From: Escherichia phage AV108
Length of the DNA: 64,000 bases
Reading direction: 5' to 3' (one strand)
Sequence record: OR352938.1
Below the pieces are notes generated by a model that was given only the letters and a program-made list of their open reading frames with translations, made no database searches and was not told the origin of the DNA. Positions 16,496 through 62,357 of the stretch are shown one piece after another; position 1 is the stretch's first letter; the number at the start of each line of letters is the position of its first letter. Made by a program: the position numbers and the translations under genes.

Positions 16496-17308
16496 TCAAT
16501 CTACGTTAGTTACATAAACTTCTTGCGTATCAGAAGACTTGCCACCTGAACGATCTAGGCAATAGGTCTTATTCAACAGGACGCAGTTTAGATCATTCCG
16601 CTTGATAAAGTCAAGAAGATGATCATTTACCTTTCCCTTATGATGCGTGACATTACTGATACCAAACTGAAAACCACGCGCCATAATAGATTCTACCCAC
16701 TGATAGAATTTAATCTCTTCCTCGTCACTCCAGAACTTATTATATTCCGCAGAAGTGATAAGATACGGCGGGTCCAAATAAACGAAATCACCTGGCAAGA
16801 TCTCGATCTCGTCATATCGTCCAGAAGTAAAAATGATTCGACCGTCTTTGTTTTCTTCCTTAAAATTCAGGACACGCTCTACCGCGTTTTCGTTAAAAGT
16901 CCGGCGACCAAAATTAGCATTAAATTCTCCCTTTCGGTTATGGCGGTTAATGTTGCTAAAACTGTGCTGAATCAACACAAACAGCGATAGCGGATCTGGA
17001 TTCTCGTTATACTTCTTACGAAATGTCATGTAAGCGTCTTTATCTTCGCGAGACAAATCATTTTCGGCAATAATCCGCTTGATCGTAGAAACCGGATCAG
17101 GACACTCGTCAATCGCTTTGTACGCGTCAATTAAGCGGTGATCATAGTCATTAGCCAGCACATCCCCTTCGACGTACAGAGACACGCTCAAGCCTCCACA
17201 AAAGGCATCAACAAAGCGGTTATAGTGCTTAGGGAAATACTTACTAACACCTGGCAATAGCTTTTCCTTATTGCCAGTATAGGGAATTAAACCTAATGCT
17301 TTCTTCAT
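16496..17308 (-). CDS. dam: DNA adenine methyltransferase Dam (GATC, D12 class)
   Basis: 270 aa; FVDAFCGGLSV (AdoMet motif I) ... DFVYLDPPYL (motif IV DPPY); colinear with T4 Dam as recalled. Confidence 0.88.
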   Translation of the reverse strand: MKKALGLIPYTGNKEKLLPGVSKYFPKHYNRFVDAFCGGLSVSLYVEGDVLANDYDHRLIDAYKAIDECPDPVSTIKRIIAENDLSREDKDAYMTFRKKYNENPDPLSLFVLIQHSFSNINRHNRKGEFNANFGRRTFNENAVERVLNFKEENKDGRIIFTSGRYDEIEILPGDFVYLDPPYLITSAEYNKFWSDEEEIKFYQWVESIMARGFQFGISNVTHHKGKVNDHLLDFIKRNDLNCVLLNKTYCLDRSGGKSSDTQEVYVTNVD

Positions 17309-24030: not shown

Positions 24031-24091
24031 TTTTGATTCTCCTTTGTTGTCGATATGTGCATTATGCTATACCCTATTCCGGTTGTCAACA
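24031..24091 (-). promoter_or_regulatory. PeSL-like early promoter-leader cassette
   Basis: Minus strand GTTGACA, tatagcataatgcac -10 region, leader ...aaaggagaatcaaaaATG. Confidence 0.6.
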
Positions 24092-51400: not shown

Positions 51401-51530
51401 GAGTCCACTGTTTGACCAGTCGGCGGTAACATTCTCTATGTTCCGTGAACTTGTAGATAAACGGTTGAAGGATAATATAGGGAGTCCACGCGATCCGAAG
51501 AATCCGACACAGAGGAAAATTAATGGCTAA
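48444..51530 (+). CDS. 7: baseplate wedge protein gp7
   Basis: 1028 aa (T4 gp7 is 1032 aa); synteny. Confidence 0.8.
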   Translation: MIKAPSVTSLTIEKLSANQAYITWDDVGENFFYFVELAETRTRDGEIIPVDELSWVNLGYTADQNWFEDKNLFPEYYYKFRVAVAAEGFEQSKWIETEEFQTFKTNAYNFSMMREFNLANEFVKQKFTYDNRDYIKFNTDLIQASLMQEDFVFSPEYANITNISNKIIVDENFHEIQDHIEKVCTDINRTMLAEMNGVLYLFERFQPIVKVSNDKGQSWKAYKAFNDRVGNPVSRTCVYQSKTTTYVLGYDRIFYGRQASDTRWSADDVRFSDDTITFAKVGDENDLGFDVEVFGVFSRLTGDTTKYAEAMACSDDYLWVGAKDVIRRIRLKNTPVDTVQGSPTFGEKIFDPDVIRVTGNDKAVIQKMDVIDGKLLVFVTGEVKQRYQDPTKPENVVPSDDAGVYLIGSDGLSFQRVFGNTPQEREYIQHGFSNMSTNGDEVFISHYNHHFESILPDPETAAKYELGEAVKYSQEPTYLTDKKIHQTTFRASYDDLRIWELGPQAYYNEADYTWMRRNGVRVWITNDNRPLVVYPEVVYTQEVDTSGILDKNRINREVYDKGTVTCYLNNVKFEGFKQYASGVMFHKNTGEIIGFYQFNYRVRDQVGVYWKPTNVAFVAELQNQVREVPWVPVHYDREQDPDLRPLLNKMTPDSFLLENENFRKFSEYYLQFLSDGSGTYYNKLKNLIKNKYPREQDAYEYLWSEMNKRNIYADKNKRDAVVRFFESRKSDFYSTKGVEASYKFLFKLLYNEDVEIEVESQAGLEYDIVVSSTNIDEDIVGRTIYTPTGRANVTYLEREYEGGRLRWRVTIHNLIGRFEEGQVIKSEKTAFEGMILVGVRGKELLSSSIDYINRSRSQYTMKIKSALPVSRYANDVMRFVHPVGFGFIGVTLLTMFINSGLSMKHTETIIQSLKNYKFDSGLPSVYPDRVADLDVDGNIKKDPLTGKPLYLTSPTMGEEFPVPPEYDQENSELFHGLKASERRFAMSPLFDQSAVTFSMFRELVDKRLKDNIGSPRDPKNPTQRKING

Positions 51531-52518
51531 TGAAAATAGTGTGATCTATCGCTCAATCATTACTAGTAAATTCAGAACGGAAAAACTTCTGAATTTCTAT
51601 AATTCTGTAGGCGATGAGGCAAATCAAATTACAATTTATGGAACGTTTGGACGTTCGGAGCCGTGGTCAGAAAACGAAAAAGAGGTGGGCTTTGCCCCAC
51701 CTTATCCGACCGATTCAACAGCTGGTGTTGTTGACATGTGGACCCATATGATGGGGGCGGTTAAGATTAACAAATCACTTCTTGATGCGGTTATCCCTCG
51801 TAAAGATTGGGGTGATACCGGACAGGATAACCCGCGCACATTCTTTATCAATGACATTGTTGTTGTCAACTCAGCACCATATAACCGAACTGATGTTGGT
51901 AGCGGCTGGATGGTGTATCGCGTAACCGATGTTCCTGATCGCGGTTACTGCTCGATTTCAAGCATTGACGCTAAAGTAGAGTGTTTGAAGTTGGGCGGAA
52001 AGTGGACACCCACTCATGAATCAATTGCGCCACCTGTAGGAAAGGGCGATTCTATTGATATGGGTGATGGGTATCGTTGGGAATATCTGTACACAATTCC
52101 ACCTGATGCGGCGATCAACCGTTGCACCAATGAACATATTGTTGTACCGTTCCCCGATGAACTGCGACAAGATCCGGCGCGTTGGGGCTATGACAATGCG
52201 ATCACATGGTATAATGACTATAATCTTCTTTATCGGCTGAAAGTAGTAACTTTGCGTTTTCAGGCTTATATGGACTCTGCGCAATTCCCAACTACCGCGT
52301 TAGTGGGTAATACTGGTTTCCGTCAGTTAAGCATTATCCTTAACCCATTGGAAAAGAAAGCACGCCCTAGCGATCCAGACGTTAAAGCGGTCAAAGATAA
52401 GTACCGACCGCAAGACTTAGAGCCACACTCAGGCGAAATGATCTACATGGAAAACCGACAACCTATCGTTCGGTCATTAGATCAAACAGAACTTGTTTCT
52501 GTATTGTTTGAGTTCTAA
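51523..52518 (+). CDS. 8: baseplate wedge protein gp8
   Basis: 331 aa (T4 gp8 is 334 aa); synteny. Confidence 0.8.
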   Translation: MANENSVIYRSIITSKFRTEKLLNFYNSVGDEANQITIYGTFGRSEPWSENEKEVGFAPPYPTDSTAGVVDMWTHMMGAVKINKSLLDAVIPRKDWGDTGQDNPRTFFINDIVVVNSAPYNRTDVGSGWMVYRVTDVPDRGYCSISSIDAKVECLKLGGKWTPTHESIAPPVGKGDSIDMGDGYRWEYLYTIPPDAAINRCTNEHIVVPFPDELRQDPARWGYDNAITWYNDYNLLYRLKVVTLRFQAYMDSAQFPTTALVGNTGFRQLSIILNPLEKKARPSDPDVKAVKDKYRPQDLEPHSGEMIYMENRQPIVRSLDQTELVSVLFEF

Positions 52519-52524
52519 GTGTAT

Positions 52525-52560
52525 GATTTTAAAAGCCAATTCGAGAGAGTTGGCTTTTTC
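52525..52560 (+). terminator. rho-independent terminator after gene 8
   Basis: agccaattcgagagagttggct hairpin followed by ttttctatttt. Confidence 0.6.
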
Positions 52561-52571
52561 TATTTTGAGTG

Positions 52572-52628
52572 TTGACAATCTTATTTGGTAAGGTATAATA
52601 CACACATCTAAACAACGGAGGATAAATT
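52572..52628 (+). promoter_or_regulatory. near-consensus sigma70 (early-type) promoter plus RBS inside the late baseplate cluster
   Basis: TTGACA (52572-52577), 16-bp spacer, TATAAT (52594-52599), GGAGGA RBS, ATG at 52629. Confidence 0.65.
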
Positions 52629-52886
52629 ATGGCACGTCGTAAATTTACAGATAATTGTGAAGCAATTCAGGTATCCCCTTGCGGTTGGGATGTGATCGCG
52701 AACGGTGAAAAGATCGGAGAGATCATCGATCATACTCATTCATCATTAGCCGATTACACCGATGAACTGTGGGAGGGTATCAACTTCATGAATGACACTA
52801 AACGATTCAAGACTATCGACGAAGCTATCTATTTTGTGTATAATCCAACTTTCGGTATGTGGGGAACTAGAAAATGGCACGCGTAA
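52629..52886 (+). CDS. hypothetical protein (85 aa), first gene of inserted cassette
   Basis: ORF track; MARRKFTD...; no motif. Confidence 0.5.
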   Translation: MARRKFTDNCEAIQVSPCGWDVIANGEKIGEIIDHTHSSLADYTDELWEGINFMNDTKRFKTIDEAIYFVYNPTFGMWGTRKWHA

Positions 52887-53206
52887 ATATTAAATTGCAT
52901 TACACAATGAATAAAGCTAAGTTCCCAATGCAAAAGCATTACTATGGTCTACGTGCACAAGATCCTAAACTCTATGGTACTCATTGGTTTTGTAAACATG
53001 ATAACCAATGGCACACATACGAAGAAATGCACGAGATGATGAAACAGGGTATTGAATTTAGTTATTCTAATTATGACCATCGTATAACTTGCATTCGAAA
53101 ATTGAAACGATGGATTCGTAAGAATCCGCAATTTAAAAACTTTGTGTTCTTTATGTCTCATGTTTATTTGGGACATAGCGTTACCGTCACAGCAAAGGTT
53201 AAATAA
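52874..53206 (+). CDS. hypothetical protein (110 aa), second gene of inserted cassette
   Basis: ORF track; His/Trp-rich (HWFCKHDNQWHTYEEMHEMM). Confidence 0.5.
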   Translation: MARVNIKLHYTMNKAKFPMQKHYYGLRAQDPKLYGTHWFCKHDNQWHTYEEMHEMMKQGIEFSYSNYDHRITCIRKLKRWIRKNPQFKNFVFFMSHVYLGHSVTVTAKVK

Positions 53207-54045
53207 TGGCACGACTTTCTAAACAAGAACAAAAATTACACGATCGGGTGATGGAGTTGATTAATTCAGATCGCCCATTGACATATGAAGAAAAAGAATT
53301 TTGCTATAATAACTATCATGGCGATGGTCTAGGCGGTTCAGGTGCATTCTTTACCCCAGAAGGGCTTGCATGGGATTTTACCATCGATGCACATTGCACA
53401 GGAAAAGTATTAGATCTTTGTGCTGGGATCGGTCGCTTATCTTTTTGTATGTTACATCGTTGTAAGCCAGAAAAGATCGTATGCGTCGAACTCAATCCAG
53501 AATTTGCGCGTATTGGCAAGCGACTATTACCGGAGGCAGAATGGATCACCAGCGATGTATTCGAATTTGAGTCAAACGAAAAATTCGATGTTGTAATTAG
53601 CAATCCACCTTTCGGGAAAATCAACACAACCAACACAAAGGATGTATTTGAATATACTGGCGGTGAGTTTGAATTTAAGGTTATGACATTAGGCCAGAAG
53701 TTTGCCGATGTAGGTTATTTTATTGTTCCTTCTGGTTCCGCTGGTTTTGCTTATTCCGGCAGACCTTATTATGACGGGACCATGAAGTCCAATAAATATC
53801 TAAAATGGAGCAAACAAACTGGTTTGGTGACTTATGCCGGATGTGGGATCGATACATCAATCTATCGCGATGAATGGCACAGTACCAACGTTTTAACAGA
53901 AGTGGTTGAGGTTCGGTATTACGAGAAAGAAGCCGTAGAAGCGCCTAAATCACGCCCTAACGAACAAATAGAAGAAAGTAAGGAGATTACCTTACCGAAA
54001 CAGGAAAGCGAGTCTGGGACGCTCTCAGATTTGTTTGACATTTAA
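53206..54045 (+). CDS. SAM-dependent amino-methyltransferase (N6-adenine/N4-cytosine class, gamma-type motif order)
   Basis: 279 aa; motif I VLDLCAGIGRLS followed ~75 aa later by motif IV VISNPPFGK. Confidence 0.7.
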   Translation: MARLSKQEQKLHDRVMELINSDRPLTYEEKEFCYNNYHGDGLGGSGAFFTPEGLAWDFTIDAHCTGKVLDLCAGIGRLSFCMLHRCKPEKIVCVELNPEFARIGKRLLPEAEWITSDVFEFESNEKFDVVISNPPFGKINTTNTKDVFEYTGGEFEFKVMTLGQKFADVGYFIVPSGSAGFAYSGRPYYDGTMKSNKYLKWSKQTGLVTYAGCGIDTSIYRDEWHSTNVLTEVVEVRYYEKEAVEAPKSRPNEQIEESKEITLPKQESESGTLSDLFDI

Positions 54046-54047
54046 TT

Positions 54048-54078
54048 ATAAGCCGTCCTCGTGGGCGGCTTTTTTGTA
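54048..54078 (+). terminator. rho-independent terminator after the methyltransferase
   Basis: agccgtcctcgtgggcggct hairpin followed by tttttg. Confidence 0.6.
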
Positions 54079-54085
54079 TGTATTT

Positions 54086-54093
54086 TATAAATA
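54086..54093 (+). promoter_or_regulatory. T4-type late promoter TATAAATA upstream of gene 9
   Basis: Exact TATAAATA ~28 nt upstream of the gp9 ATG, after the terminator. Confidence 0.6.
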
Positions 54094-54120
54094 ATACATC
54101 ATAACATGAGGAATTAAACA

Positions 54121-54975
54121 ATGGCACAAGTTCCAAAGAAAAGAATAGACACAGGTACTGTCGGCAATCCATCGACTGGCGATATCTTATATGATGGCGG
54201 TAATAAAATTAACGATAACTTTGATTCAATATATGACGCATTTGCTGATCAGCGGTTTAAAGACGTAGACCACGGCGTGGGAAGAATGGTTATTCATGCA
54301 ACCGGATACTATCAGAAGCATCCACGTCAAAGCTACGCTGGTTCCGCTGTTGAGATTGGGAGTCTACACGATATCGATACAACTCAAGGCGCACTTATTG
54401 CTATTCTACCTAAAGCAAAGGTCGGTGAGGGTGTTGTATTCATAAATAGTAACGGTAGCCTTTCAACGACGACACCGCTCAATATTCGAACTCAAGCAGG
54501 TGATTCTATTAGCGGTTATTCCGGTGATGCTACAATAACACAACCATTTTCAAAAGTCACTGTTTGGTGTACTGCCGTTGAAGGTAGTCGCGTAACATGG
54601 CGATTGGGTATCGAAAGTATGTTTACCGATACAACAACGCCATTAGATAAAACAGTTAACGTAACTGGAGTAGCAACAAACGTTGCTATTGCCGCAAAAA
54701 CAGAATACGTTTCCATCAAATTATTAACTACCGCTAGCAATACATCCGGTTCAAAAATGCGTTCAAGTGAAACGCTACTGATGATTGATTCTAAAGCCGG
54801 AAAAGTTTATGCGACGGAATATGCAGTTTTGCAGAAGACAGAAGATGAACTATACACGGTTCATTATTTCATCGGTTCCGGCGATAAAGTATATGCAGAG
54901 TATAAGGCTACTGGCGAAAATATTCGTTTAGCAGTTAAAGCCGTAGACACTATTAAAATCGGGGTTGCTACATGA
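54121..54975 (+). CDS. 9: baseplate wedge / long-tail-fibre socket protein gp9
   Basis: 284 aa (T4 gp9 is 288 aa); synteny with 10-11-12. Confidence 0.75.
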   Translation: MAQVPKKRIDTGTVGNPSTGDILYDGGNKINDNFDSIYDAFADQRFKDVDHGVGRMVIHATGYYQKHPRQSYAGSAVEIGSLHDIDTTQGALIAILPKAKVGEGVVFINSNGSLSTTTPLNIRTQAGDSISGYSGDATITQPFSKVTVWCTAVEGSRVTWRLGIESMFTDTTTPLDKTVNVTGVATNVAIAAKTEYVSIKLLTTASNTSGSKMRSSETLLMIDSKAGKVYATEYAVLQKTEDELYTVHYFIGSGDKVYAEYKATGENIRLAVKAVDTIKIGVAT

Positions 54976-61616: not shown

Positions 61617-62357
61617 ATGTTTAACAACACTCTTTTTGCTCGCCTTGAATCGCAAAAGGATTATGAGAATACACGACAAACAGAGATTCTTAATCCTTAT
61701 GTGAACTTTCACAAATATACAAATACTCAGACGTTAGCCGACGTTATGGTCGCCGAAGCTATTCAGATGCGAGGTGTAGAATTATATTACATCCCTCGTG
61801 AATTTGTCAAACCAGATATGATCTTTGGTGAGGATGTTCAAAGCAGATTTACTAAAGCATGGAAATTTGCGGCGTATATTAACTCATTTGATGGGTATGA
61901 AGGAGCGGGTAATTTCTTCTCTAGTTTCGGGTATCAAGCTAATGATGAATTAACTTTTACGGTTAACCCCAACCTATTCAAGCATCAAGTAGATGATCAA
62001 GAGCCAAAATCAGGTGACTTAATTTATATTCCAATGAGTAATGATCTCTTTGAAATTAATTACGTCGAGCCATATCAGCCGTTTTTTCAGGCTGGAAAAA
62101 ATGCCATGCGTAAAATTATTGCAGAGAAATTCGTGTATAGCGGTGAGGAATTGCGACCAGAATTACAACGCAATGAGGGAATTAATGTTGATGAGTTTGC
62201 GGATCTGGATCTTGCACCGATCACTAATCTGGACGGGTTAACAGATATCAACTTAGATCAGTACAAAGAAGATAAGCAATTCAGAAGCGAAGGACAAGAT
62301 TTTATTGATCCGTTTGATCCTATTAATGGCAAGGGTTCACCTTTCGCCGATTTTTGA
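61617..62357 (+). CDS. 14: neck protein gp14
   Basis: 246 aa (T4 gp14 is 256 aa); synteny. Confidence 0.75.

Follow-up and report, generated by a model that had tools for sequence, protein, structure and literature searches.

What is a methyltransferase gene doing between two baseplate genes of a coliphage, and on what does its product act? The question is raised by positions 52519-54120 of a 64,000-nucleotide (nt) stretch of Escherichia phage AV108 (OR352938.1), the whole of which is called the window below. The window was assigned to Krischvirus, the genus of the RB49-like 'pseudo-T-even' coliphages, with phage kaaroe as the top match at 99% identity. An initial annotation of this DNA, made from the letters alone, had described the cassette at 52519-54120 as a self-contained early module dropped into a late operon between genes 8 and 9, whose methyltransferase might act on DNA, RNA or protein. 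The feature that it overlooked is the C-terminal tail of the methyltransferase, which closely resembles the clamp-binding tail of the phage DNA polymerase gp43. The reading that we consider probable, though well short of secure, is that of a conserved early cassette placed where two late transcription units have long met, encoding an N6-adenine DNA methyltransferase that would be tethered to the sliding clamp gp45 and would probably serve anti-restriction.

The C-terminal tail of the methyltransferase

The methyltransferase gene and its parts, as far as they concern the tail, are the following:

53206-54045, plus strand: methyltransferase gene, 279 amino acids (aa) (phrog_3820, E-value 2e-117)
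53206-53940, plus strand: catalytic core, aa 1-245, with motifs X, I and IV
53941-54018, plus strand: charged, variable linker predicted to be disordered, aa 246-271 (predicted local distance difference test score, pLDDT, about 41-54)
54019-54042, plus strand: C-terminal TLSDLFDI, aa 272-279, putative gp45 clamp-binding epitope

The AlphaFold model (mean pLDDT 83) is confident over residues 1-245 save for the loop 41-47, and residues 246-279 are predicted to be disordered. The protein ends in ...GTLSDLFDI and gp43 of RB49 in ...ASLTDLFDI, with six of the last eight residues identical. The tail of RB49 gp43 can be matched position by position to that of RB69 gp43, ASLFDMFDF (last eight SLFDMFDF), and the 11 C-terminal residues of the RB69 polymerase have been co-crystallised on the clamp (Geiduschek & Kassavetis 2010, PMC2988020). 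Over the last 60 residues, gp43 is 100% identical in ELT3, ECD7 and SAP, the best three listed, and identity is 99% or higher in 56 phage records.

When the gp43 tail was compared with 1116 six-frame open reading frames (ORFs), essentially one whole Krischvirus genome, the methyltransferase tail was the top non-self match, with a score of 32 against a mean of -7.6 and a standard deviation of 6.5, i.e., about 6 standard deviations over the mean, followed by DNA ligase at 19 and then by Alt and gp33, tied at 12. At the DNA level, 21 of 27 nt of the two tails are identical, the differences are synonymous and the flanks are unrelated, which is conservation of the protein sequence rather than a copied DNA segment. 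A homologue that is 68-70% identical and has a diverged linker ends in TLTDLFDI, and another ends in SLSMFDI; the linker varies between relatives in both length and sequence, and both ends are kept. The match might nevertheless have arisen by chance or be a neutral relic of recombination in an otherwise ordinary moron with an orphan methyltransferase, given that the motif is short (eight residues) and that genes flanked by the early promoter–stem-loop elements (PeSLs) of RB49-like phages are often shuffled (PMC2839356). The first rank of the tail among the 1116 ORFs, its retention behind a diverged linker and the synonymous differences from gp43 amid unrelated flanks all speak against this explanation, to which the survey of the family returns below.

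As clamp epitopes, the C-termini of gp43, gp55 and gp33, all hydrophobic/acidic, can replace one another, and that of gp55 sits on a divergent, unstructured linker (PMC2988020). The window protein shares this layout, in that a folded domain is followed by a divergent linker, predicted to be unstructured, and by a short hydrophobic/acidic peptide of gp43 type at the extreme C-terminus; it differs in that the client would be a methyltransferase. Methyltransferases are not named as gp45 ligands in two reviews (PMC2988020, PMC9690074), and the gp45 gene itself lies outside the 64-kb window. The methyltransferase tail is listed above as a putative ligand of the gp45 sliding clamp.

Among the matches to the RB49 gp43 tail that follow the methyltransferase, DNA ligase (gene 30; L010 40126-41622) ends in ...TVKEVFDV and may carry a further clamp epitope. 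The protein tied with Alt, gp33 (L009 8695-8964), ends in ...EPTNTLDI, and gp55 is encoded at L007 27531-28064.

Tails across the methyltransferase family

Relatives of the methyltransferase are numerous (about 1,700 in a 90% clustered database and 1,044 in a 50% representative library). In a survey of 80 viral contigs, the type of tail followed the type of replicon:

Krischvirus: methyltransferase tail TLSDLFDI
T4-like contigs that encode their own gp43/gp45, RB43-like ones included: NLFTFTIE, DLFTFTIE or TFDFRIE behind a Pro/Glu-rich linker
40-66 kb viral contigs: variable linkers, then QLSLFDAA, QLDLFGMAA, QADLFGVAA or QLDIFEQIA
13-37 kb viral contigs, and also bacterial genomes outside this survey: no tail, the protein ending directly after the core

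Motif statistics were obtained from 145 diverse representatives, 94 with tails of at least 8 aa and 51 in which the core is followed by fewer than 8 residues. The pattern Q..[LMIF]F occurs in the last 12 residues of 30 of the 94 tailed proteins, whereas 1000 shuffles gave 0.42 on average and never more than 3; of 2900 random 12-mers drawn from the cores, 2 carry it. The shorter pattern [LMIF]F occurs in 50 of the 94, with 7.1 expected. Since the bacterial beta-clamp motif is QL(S/D)LF (PMC9690074), tails such as QLSLFDAA, QLDLFGMAA and KKQLTLF carry a motif of this kind at or near the C-terminus.

Based on these tails, the family, widespread on phages, prophages, megaplasmids and genomic islands, may be viewed as orphan DNA methyltransferases tethered to the clamp by an exchangeable C-terminal peptide matching the clamp of the replicon, a generalisation that we hold to be slightly on the likely side. 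The proposed exchange would be between a peptide of the QL[SD]LF type in replicons that rely on the beta clamp of the host and the gp45-binding tail of the polymerase in Krischvirus. A stricter form of the idea, in which the methyltransferase tail co-varies with the local gp43 tail, was rejected. RB43-like methyltransferases end in NLFTFTIE, DLFTFTIE or TFDFRIE, whereas the gp43 tails are SLNTLFGDDW, SLNDLFGDW and SLSDLFDF; in the RB43-like, the Slopekvirus-like and one further lineage, the tails are thus of the same kind but of different sequence, which supports the idea weakly. The poor match of RB43-like tails to their own gp43 is also what a coincidental resemblance would give. However, the beta-clamp motifs that stand independently at this position in other members of the family are far more frequent than in any shuffle, and together with the evidence from the Krischvirus tail this makes coincidence very unlikely in our estimate.

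DNA methyltransferases that bind the clamp, whether of phages or of bacteria, did not come up in a literature search of incomplete coverage, so that an earlier description is possible. The clamp-type tail and the family-wide swapping of clamp motifs appear to be unreported.

Tailed or long homologues were also seen in a bacterial island (L092 8001-8978), adjoining a ParB_N protein and an Xre-RES toxin–antitoxin pair, and on Pseudomonas megaplasmids of 0.4-0.58 Mb, which account for 115 of the 193 matched plasmid records (hits H101-H125).

The substrate of the methyltransferase

The catalytic motifs lie within the core as listed here, together with the other methyltransferase of the window that the initial annotation had named:

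53341-53358, plus strand: motif X GAFFTP, aa 46-51
53416-53433, plus strand: motif I LCAGIG, aa 71-76
53602-53616, plus strand: motif IV NPPFG, aa 133-137
16496-17308: Dam (TIGR00571, E-value 1.6e-44, score 152.6 against a cut-off of 114.85)

The 279-aa protein has no TIGR00571 match, in agreement with the earlier statement that it is distinct from Dam. The motif order X-I-IV (GAFFTP, LCAGIG, NPPFG) is invariant in 26 homologues whose identity with the window protein is 45-70%. This order is the gamma arrangement, which is typical of N6-adenine DNA enzymes. The enzyme is most likely an exocyclic-amino methyltransferase of gamma-type order that modifies N6 of adenine in DNA. Gamma-class enzymes of this specificity include M.TaqI, HsdM of Type I systems, Type IIG/IIL enzymes such as MmeI and Eco57I, and lmo1582/YtxK-like proteins; the window protein is far smaller than these, its core comprising about 240 aa and leaving only about 100 residues for target recognition, and it is an orphan with no S or R partner subunit.

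A classification by profile hidden Markov models, which the initial annotation had proposed as a check, was run with Pfam, NCBIfam, PADLOC and PDB searches and returned mixed, weak matches that do not decide between DNA and RNA or protein. The best Pfam match is MTS (38.6 against a cut-off of 23), followed by Eco57I (PF07669; 29.3 against 25.3), and N6_Mtase (PF02384) stays below its cut-off (17.5 against 20.4). The MTS match fits a rival explanation, namely an amino-methyltransferase of RNA or protein, similar to RsmC/RsmD, METTL5 or PrmC, that modifies ribosomes or release factors of the host soon after infection, so that the likeness to gp43 would be irrelevant to the substrate. The same explanation gains from weak NCBIfam matches to PrmC, RsmC and L3 glutamine methyltransferase, from the presence of PH1948 and RsmC among the PDB sequence matches, and from the GenBank labels of homologues, which read 'release factor glutamine methyltransferase' or, for ORF143w in the 2003 RB49 record, 'similar to rRNA guanine-N2-methyltransferase'. 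However, the NCBIfam scores are far under their cut-offs (PrmC 37.4 vs 199.1, RsmC 29.3 vs 295, L3 glutamine methyltransferase 28.8 vs 229.7), and some of the 'release factor methyltransferase' labels can be traced to these weak PrmC/RsmC matches. The alignments of METTL5 and PH1948 cover only the Rossmann core of about 170 residues, whereas DNA methyltransferases align over 209-237 residues. Motif X itself and the PADLOC matches that begin at it (mad2, 4.7e-17; MTase_II, 1e-9) also point to DNA enzymes.

The profile and fold evidence alone does not separate a DNA from an RNA substrate. The strongest argument on this question is the tail, since a clamp-binding peptide, of gp45 type in Krischvirus and of beta type in many homologues, is sensible only on an enzyme that acts on DNA. 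In RB43, the homologue (L008 18258-18992) stands among replication genes, between primase 61/61.1 and helicase 41, which also counts against the RNA or protein enzyme. We regard that rival as improbable; of the three substrate classes left open by the initial annotation, the evidence favours DNA.

The position between 61.1 and 41 in the replication cluster recurs in RB43-, Karam- and Slopekvirus-like phages (L008, L036-L049), and a conserved ORF of about 130 aa (RB43ORF031) lies upstream of, and overlaps, the homologue in nine of the nine T4-like loci examined. A study of KP15 and KP27 reported Dam and Dcm and no further methyltransferases (PMC5219037), although KP27 carries a homologue of the present enzyme. 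The closest homologues outside Krischvirus are tail-less proteins of about 238 aa, 54-61% identical, on Citrobacter, Enterobacter, Klebsiella and Salmonella chromosomes. In C. freundii (L003-L006 10001-10717), the gene adjoins yliH (PF10799) at the edge of an island of small ORFs of unknown function, an HNH gene and insertion sequence elements, and the exact protein is indexed in 1645 assembly-collection blocks.

The cassette between genes 8 and 9

The features of the locus other than the methyltransferase are the following:

51523-52518, plus strand: gene 8, baseplate wedge subunit, left flank (Pfam PF09215 Phage-Gp8, E-value 4.6e-144; phrog_977)
52531-52558, plus strand: first hairpin, predicted terminator after gp8 and stem-loop half of the PeSL (12-bp stem, then a T-run)
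52572-52599, plus strand: sigma70-type promoter, predicted (-35 TTGACA at 52572-52577, 16-nt spacer, -10 TATAAT at 52594-52599; 12/12 match)
52629-52886, plus strand: ORF85, 85 aa, first gene of a two-gene module (phrog_16603, E-value 7e-61, function unknown)
52874-53206, plus strand: ORF110, 110 aa, second gene of the module (phrog_12630, E-value 1.6e-68; 13-nt overlap with ORF85)
54050-54071, plus strand: second hairpin, predicted cassette terminator (9-bp stem with 6 GC pairs, T-run; -15.9 kcal/mol, z -4.25)
54086-54093, plus strand: TATAAATA late promoter of gene 9 (exact, 27 nt before the gp9 ATG)
54121-54975, plus strand: gene 9, baseplate wedge tail-fibre connector, right flank (Pfam T4_gp9_10_N, E-value 1.4e-40; phrog_967)

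All the elements that the initial annotation had named between gp8 and gp9 are present where it placed them, including the module's own sigma70-type promoter and terminator. The three ORFs are tightly packed behind a ribosome-binding site, GGAGGA, 7 nt 5' of the ORF85 ATG. The cassette lies within the conserved baseplate gene block (genes 6-12), on the late-gene strand. The whole stretch from gp8 through the insert to gp9 was found in 57 of 65 matching phage records, at 92-99% identity, and these are E. coli and Shigella phages, including RB49, Phi1, JSE, ECD7 and GEC-3S, which indicates that the insert is fixed in the genus Krischvirus. The GenBank record NC_025425 already annotates a terminator, a promoter with its -35 and -10, and a second terminator at this locus. 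The cassette is a conserved accessory gene module of RB49-like phages, predicted to be expressed early, already annotated and of a known kind. The GC content of the insert is 0.389 (0.345 in ORF110) and that of the flanks 0.405-0.412, a gap too small to indicate origin.

Outside the genus, T4 has only a 63-bp gap between genes 8 and 9, and Morganella phage Rgz1 (Gualtarvirus), the nearest outgroup examined, located via gp43 similarity, has a gap of 57 bp; neither carries an insert. In T4, the intergenic order is stop codon, GGGAGCCCATGGGCTCCC hairpin, T-run, TATAAATA and gene 9, and Rgz1 follows the same plan of hairpin and TATAAATA. The late promoter of gene 9 and the terminator after gene 8 are therefore ancestral, and the cassette sits between two late transcription units rather than inside an operon. 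The comparison of presence and absence across relatives, proposed in the initial annotation, has consequently split its picture of a drop-in. The insert is indeed without counterpart in T4 and Rgz1, but its genus-wide occurrence (57 of 65 records) argues against a recent arrival, and the site is the older boundary between late units rather than the interior of one. Nor does the late promoter 'restore' gp9 expression, as had been supposed, because TATAAATA predates the insertion and repaired nothing.

Two divergent metagenomic relatives, L094 and L096, whose gp8 is 88% and 81% identical to that of the window, keep the methyltransferase. The order in L094 is gp8, a PeSL made of a hairpin and TTGACA-17-TATAAT, the methyltransferase alone, hairpin, TATAAATA and gp9; in L096, a textbook RB49-type PeSL is followed by an unrelated 154-aa ORF, the methyltransferase, hairpin and TATAAATA. 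The layout of the second hairpin thus recurs in both, as does TATAAATA before gene 9. Because the upstream ORFs are absent in one and replaced in the other, the methyltransferase is the constant element and the ORFs before it are exchangeable, as expected from the PeSL model. The cassette is self-contained, as first described; it is also composite and not a single unit.

The promoter and its stem-loop

In RB49 and phi1, PeSLs are repeated composite elements in which an early promoter of sigma70 consensus is combined with AT-rich sequence upstream and a stable terminating stem-loop; they border small accessory genes, which are shuffled through them (Arbiol et al. 2010, PMC2839356; see also Comeau et al. 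2014, PMC4122927). The element between gp8 and ORF85 shows the same parts. Its promoter matches the sigma70 consensus at 12 of 12 positions; in the whole window, on both strands, six perfect matches were seen and 0.089 were expected under a model of independent, identically distributed bases, and the gp8-ORF85 promoter is the sole strong match (at least 11/12) on the plus strand. Weaker promoter-like matches in the region are at chance level (11 against 12.0 expected in shuffled sequence), so only the perfect match counts. The adjacent first hairpin folds at -15.6 kcal/mol (z -4.2), with none of 200 shuffles as stable, and an AT-rich stretch lies 5' of the -35. The hairpin is followed by TTTTTCTATTTT, a layout repeated at the promoters at 24089, 11053, 21679 and 37618, and the comparison with 10 minus-strand early promoters of the window gave hairpin, T-run, GTGTTGACA, TATAAT and ACACACATC-AAAC as common features. 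The element is intergenic and is followed by a Shine-Dalgarno sequence and the start of a small accessory ORF, and the genes behind it are exchanged among three lineages (ORF85 and ORF110, no ORF, or ORF154). The hairpin and promoter between gp8 and ORF85 are a typical RB49-type PeSL, with predicted promoter and terminator function. The copy differs from the described PeSL cassettes in lying in a conserved virion block on the late strand and not in a hyperplastic region, towards which PeSLs tend without this being a strict requirement. The available parts of the text of PMC2839356 do not mention the gp8-gp9 locus.

Elsewhere in the window, positions 10994-37671 of the minus strand hold dense, near-identical early promoters of the form GTGTTGACA-N17-(C/T)ATAAT-(A/G)CAC.CATCGAAACGAAACAC, several of them with a GC-rich hairpin just upstream; their -35 starts include 37618, 35627, 34665, 24089, 22847, 21679, 19605, 18929, 13558 and 11053. 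A perfect TTGACA-18-TATAAT at about 61781-61810, minus strand, is antisense within the late plus-strand ORF at 61617-62357 and is without the extended early consensus; it may be a chance match or an antisense promoter.

ORF85 and ORF110

Neither ORF85 nor ORF110 has a Pfam, NCBIfam or PADLOC match, and their phrog families are uninformative. ORF85 was found in 61 phage records and ORF110 in 88. In phage HMD-6 (PQ505080), an rV5-like 138-kb coliphage, homologues of ORF85 (69% identical) and ORF110 (60%) lie together (L097 2001-2575) with the same 13-nt overlap, after a hairpin and a sigma70-like promoter, and no methyltransferase accompanies them; ORF110 homologues at 58-60% identity occur in coliphages of 135-139 kb. 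Krischvirus and the 135-139 kb rV5-like coliphages are unrelated groups to which the pair is common, a distribution that marks ORF85-ORF110 as a mobile two-gene module. A linkage of the pair to the methyltransferase was considered and rejected. Among the methyltransferase loci examined, the pair and the methyltransferase co-occur only in Krischvirus, the pair stands without a methyltransferase in HMD-6, and it is absent or replaced in L094 and L096.

Among close relatives, ORF110 is at least 95% identical in most and about 72% in RB49, SFHK24 and ELT4, and where it diverges ORF85 and the methyltransferase remain at 93-99%, which suggests an allele replacement of ORF110 inside the cassette. In the RB49 record (AY343333, L002 1729-1975), ORF85 is split into 140w (51 aa) and 141w (32 aa), and this may reflect a frameshift, a sequencing error in the 2003 record or a dispensable gene.

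A proposed mechanism and its alternatives

If these elements act as predicted, the PeSL hairpin would stop late read-through from gene 8, and the host RNA polymerase would fire the PeSL promoter soon after infection and transcribe the three genes. The second hairpin would end the cassette transcript, after which the ancestral TATAAATA would drive gene 9. The methyltransferase would then accumulate as replication begins, and its tail, in view of its likeness to that of gp43, would dock on the gp45 clamps that the clamp loader puts on replicating or nicked phage DNA. Such tethering would raise the local concentration of the enzyme on nascent phage DNA, so that adenine methylation could keep pace with rapid replication, and progeny DNA, whose cytosines are generally unmodified in this genus, would be methylated on leaving the cell and better protected from host restriction.

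Several observations weigh against this clamp-tethered, anti-restriction enzyme. The inequality of RB43-like tails and the local gp43 tails means that co-variation, lineage by lineage, was not demonstrated. Tail-less versions of the enzyme occur in T4-like Aeromonas phages and in the jumbo phage GAP32. Furthermore, high-performance liquid chromatography–mass spectrometry of the Krischvirus TB34 gave 'no detectable modified DNA' (PMC13390438), a null result that argues against bulk adenine methylation, while sparse N6-methyladenine (m6A) would be compatible with it.

The TB34 study also bears on a different purpose for clamp-tethered methylation, i.e., a 'self' mark for the phage's own nucleases or packaging that would substitute for the hydroxymethylcytosine absent in RB49-like phages. 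TB34 DNA has canonical cytosines, and the genus is without homologues of the known cytosine-modification enzymes (5hmCMP/5hodCMP synthases, DNA glucosyltransferases) (PMC13390438). RB49 encodes endonuclease II (denA) and gp46/47, and the phage clamp loader, which loads gp45, would steer the enzyme to phage DNA. However, this explanation is pure inference, and homologues with beta-type motifs, which occur in a bacterial genome as well as in viral contigs of 40-66 kb, could not tell the DNA of the element from that of the host; a self mark seems highly improbable to us. As a separate observation, the Krischvirus SAP, 99.96% identical to TB34, reportedly contains glucosyl-methyl-dC where TB34 has canonical cytosines, a difference for which no known pathway genes are present and which its authors leave unexplained (PMC13390438); no evidence here ties it to the gp8-gp9 cassette.

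Clamp binding could alternatively serve a mainly regulatory role, in which an abundant early ligand competes with gp43, gp33 and gp55 and thereby tunes replication or delays late transcription, with methylation secondary or lost. The near-identity of the tail with that of gp43 and the very strong predicted early promoter would suit such a role, as would the competition of gp43, gp55 and gp33 for the same clamp sites with interchangeable tails (PMC2988020) and the upset of replication control by overproduced clamp ligands elsewhere, e.g., MuC. However, the catalytic motifs are invariant in the 26 homologues as well as in the wider family, which argues for selection on catalysis, and the frequency of tail-less homologues (51 of 145) implies that the enzyme works without a tail. 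A mainly regulatory role is unlikely on this evidence, and the clamp-tethered DNA methyltransferase remains our preferred reading.

Related enzymes and significance

The closest functional analogy is that of DNMT1 and PCNA (PMC9690074), where a DNA methyltransferase with a clamp-binding peptide, putative in the present case, is directed to freshly replicated DNA. The analogy is one of function only: DNMT1 methylates C5 of cytosine and the window protein is an amino-methyltransferase, the clamps are PCNA and gp45 or beta, and the purpose is another. The orphan m6A methyltransferases M.EcoGIX and M.BceJIII have activities tied to the replication machinery and early anti-restriction functions, and a clamp-mediated link to Pol I was suggested by the authors (2020, PMC7736820). 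They resemble the window enzyme, for which m6A is predicted, as orphan methyltransferases of mobile elements, but they belong to the beta class with DPPY, whereas the window protein has gamma order and NPPF, and no clamp motif has been described for them. In E. coli, IncI/IncF plasmids carry homologues of M.EcoGIX in their leading regions (PMC7736820). The organisms listed for the 193 plasmid matches of the present enzyme are Pseudomonas, Streptomyces, Agrobacterium and other non-enterobacterial genera and not E. coli with IncI/IncF plasmids; homology with M.EcoGIX and M.BceJIII was rejected on the grounds of class and of this list.

The cassette as first described is an ordinary, genus-wide accessory module driven by a PeSL, and its significance lies in the tail of the methyltransferase. 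If the tail binds the clamp, mobile elements would couple DNA methylation to the replication fork via a clamp peptide borrowed from the polymerase and swapped to suit the clamp in use, which would explain how the many genome copies that a phage makes within minutes are methylated fully and in time against restriction. The enzyme would then be a new client in the gp45 'toolbelt', whose known ligands are the polymerase, the late sigma factor, the co-activator and the clamp loader, and a prokaryotic and viral counterpart of DNMT1-PCNA. A C-terminal clamp motif would also offer a simple rule by which methyltransferases of DNA could be separated from those of RNA or protein within the many ambiguous 'MTS-domain' proteins of phages.

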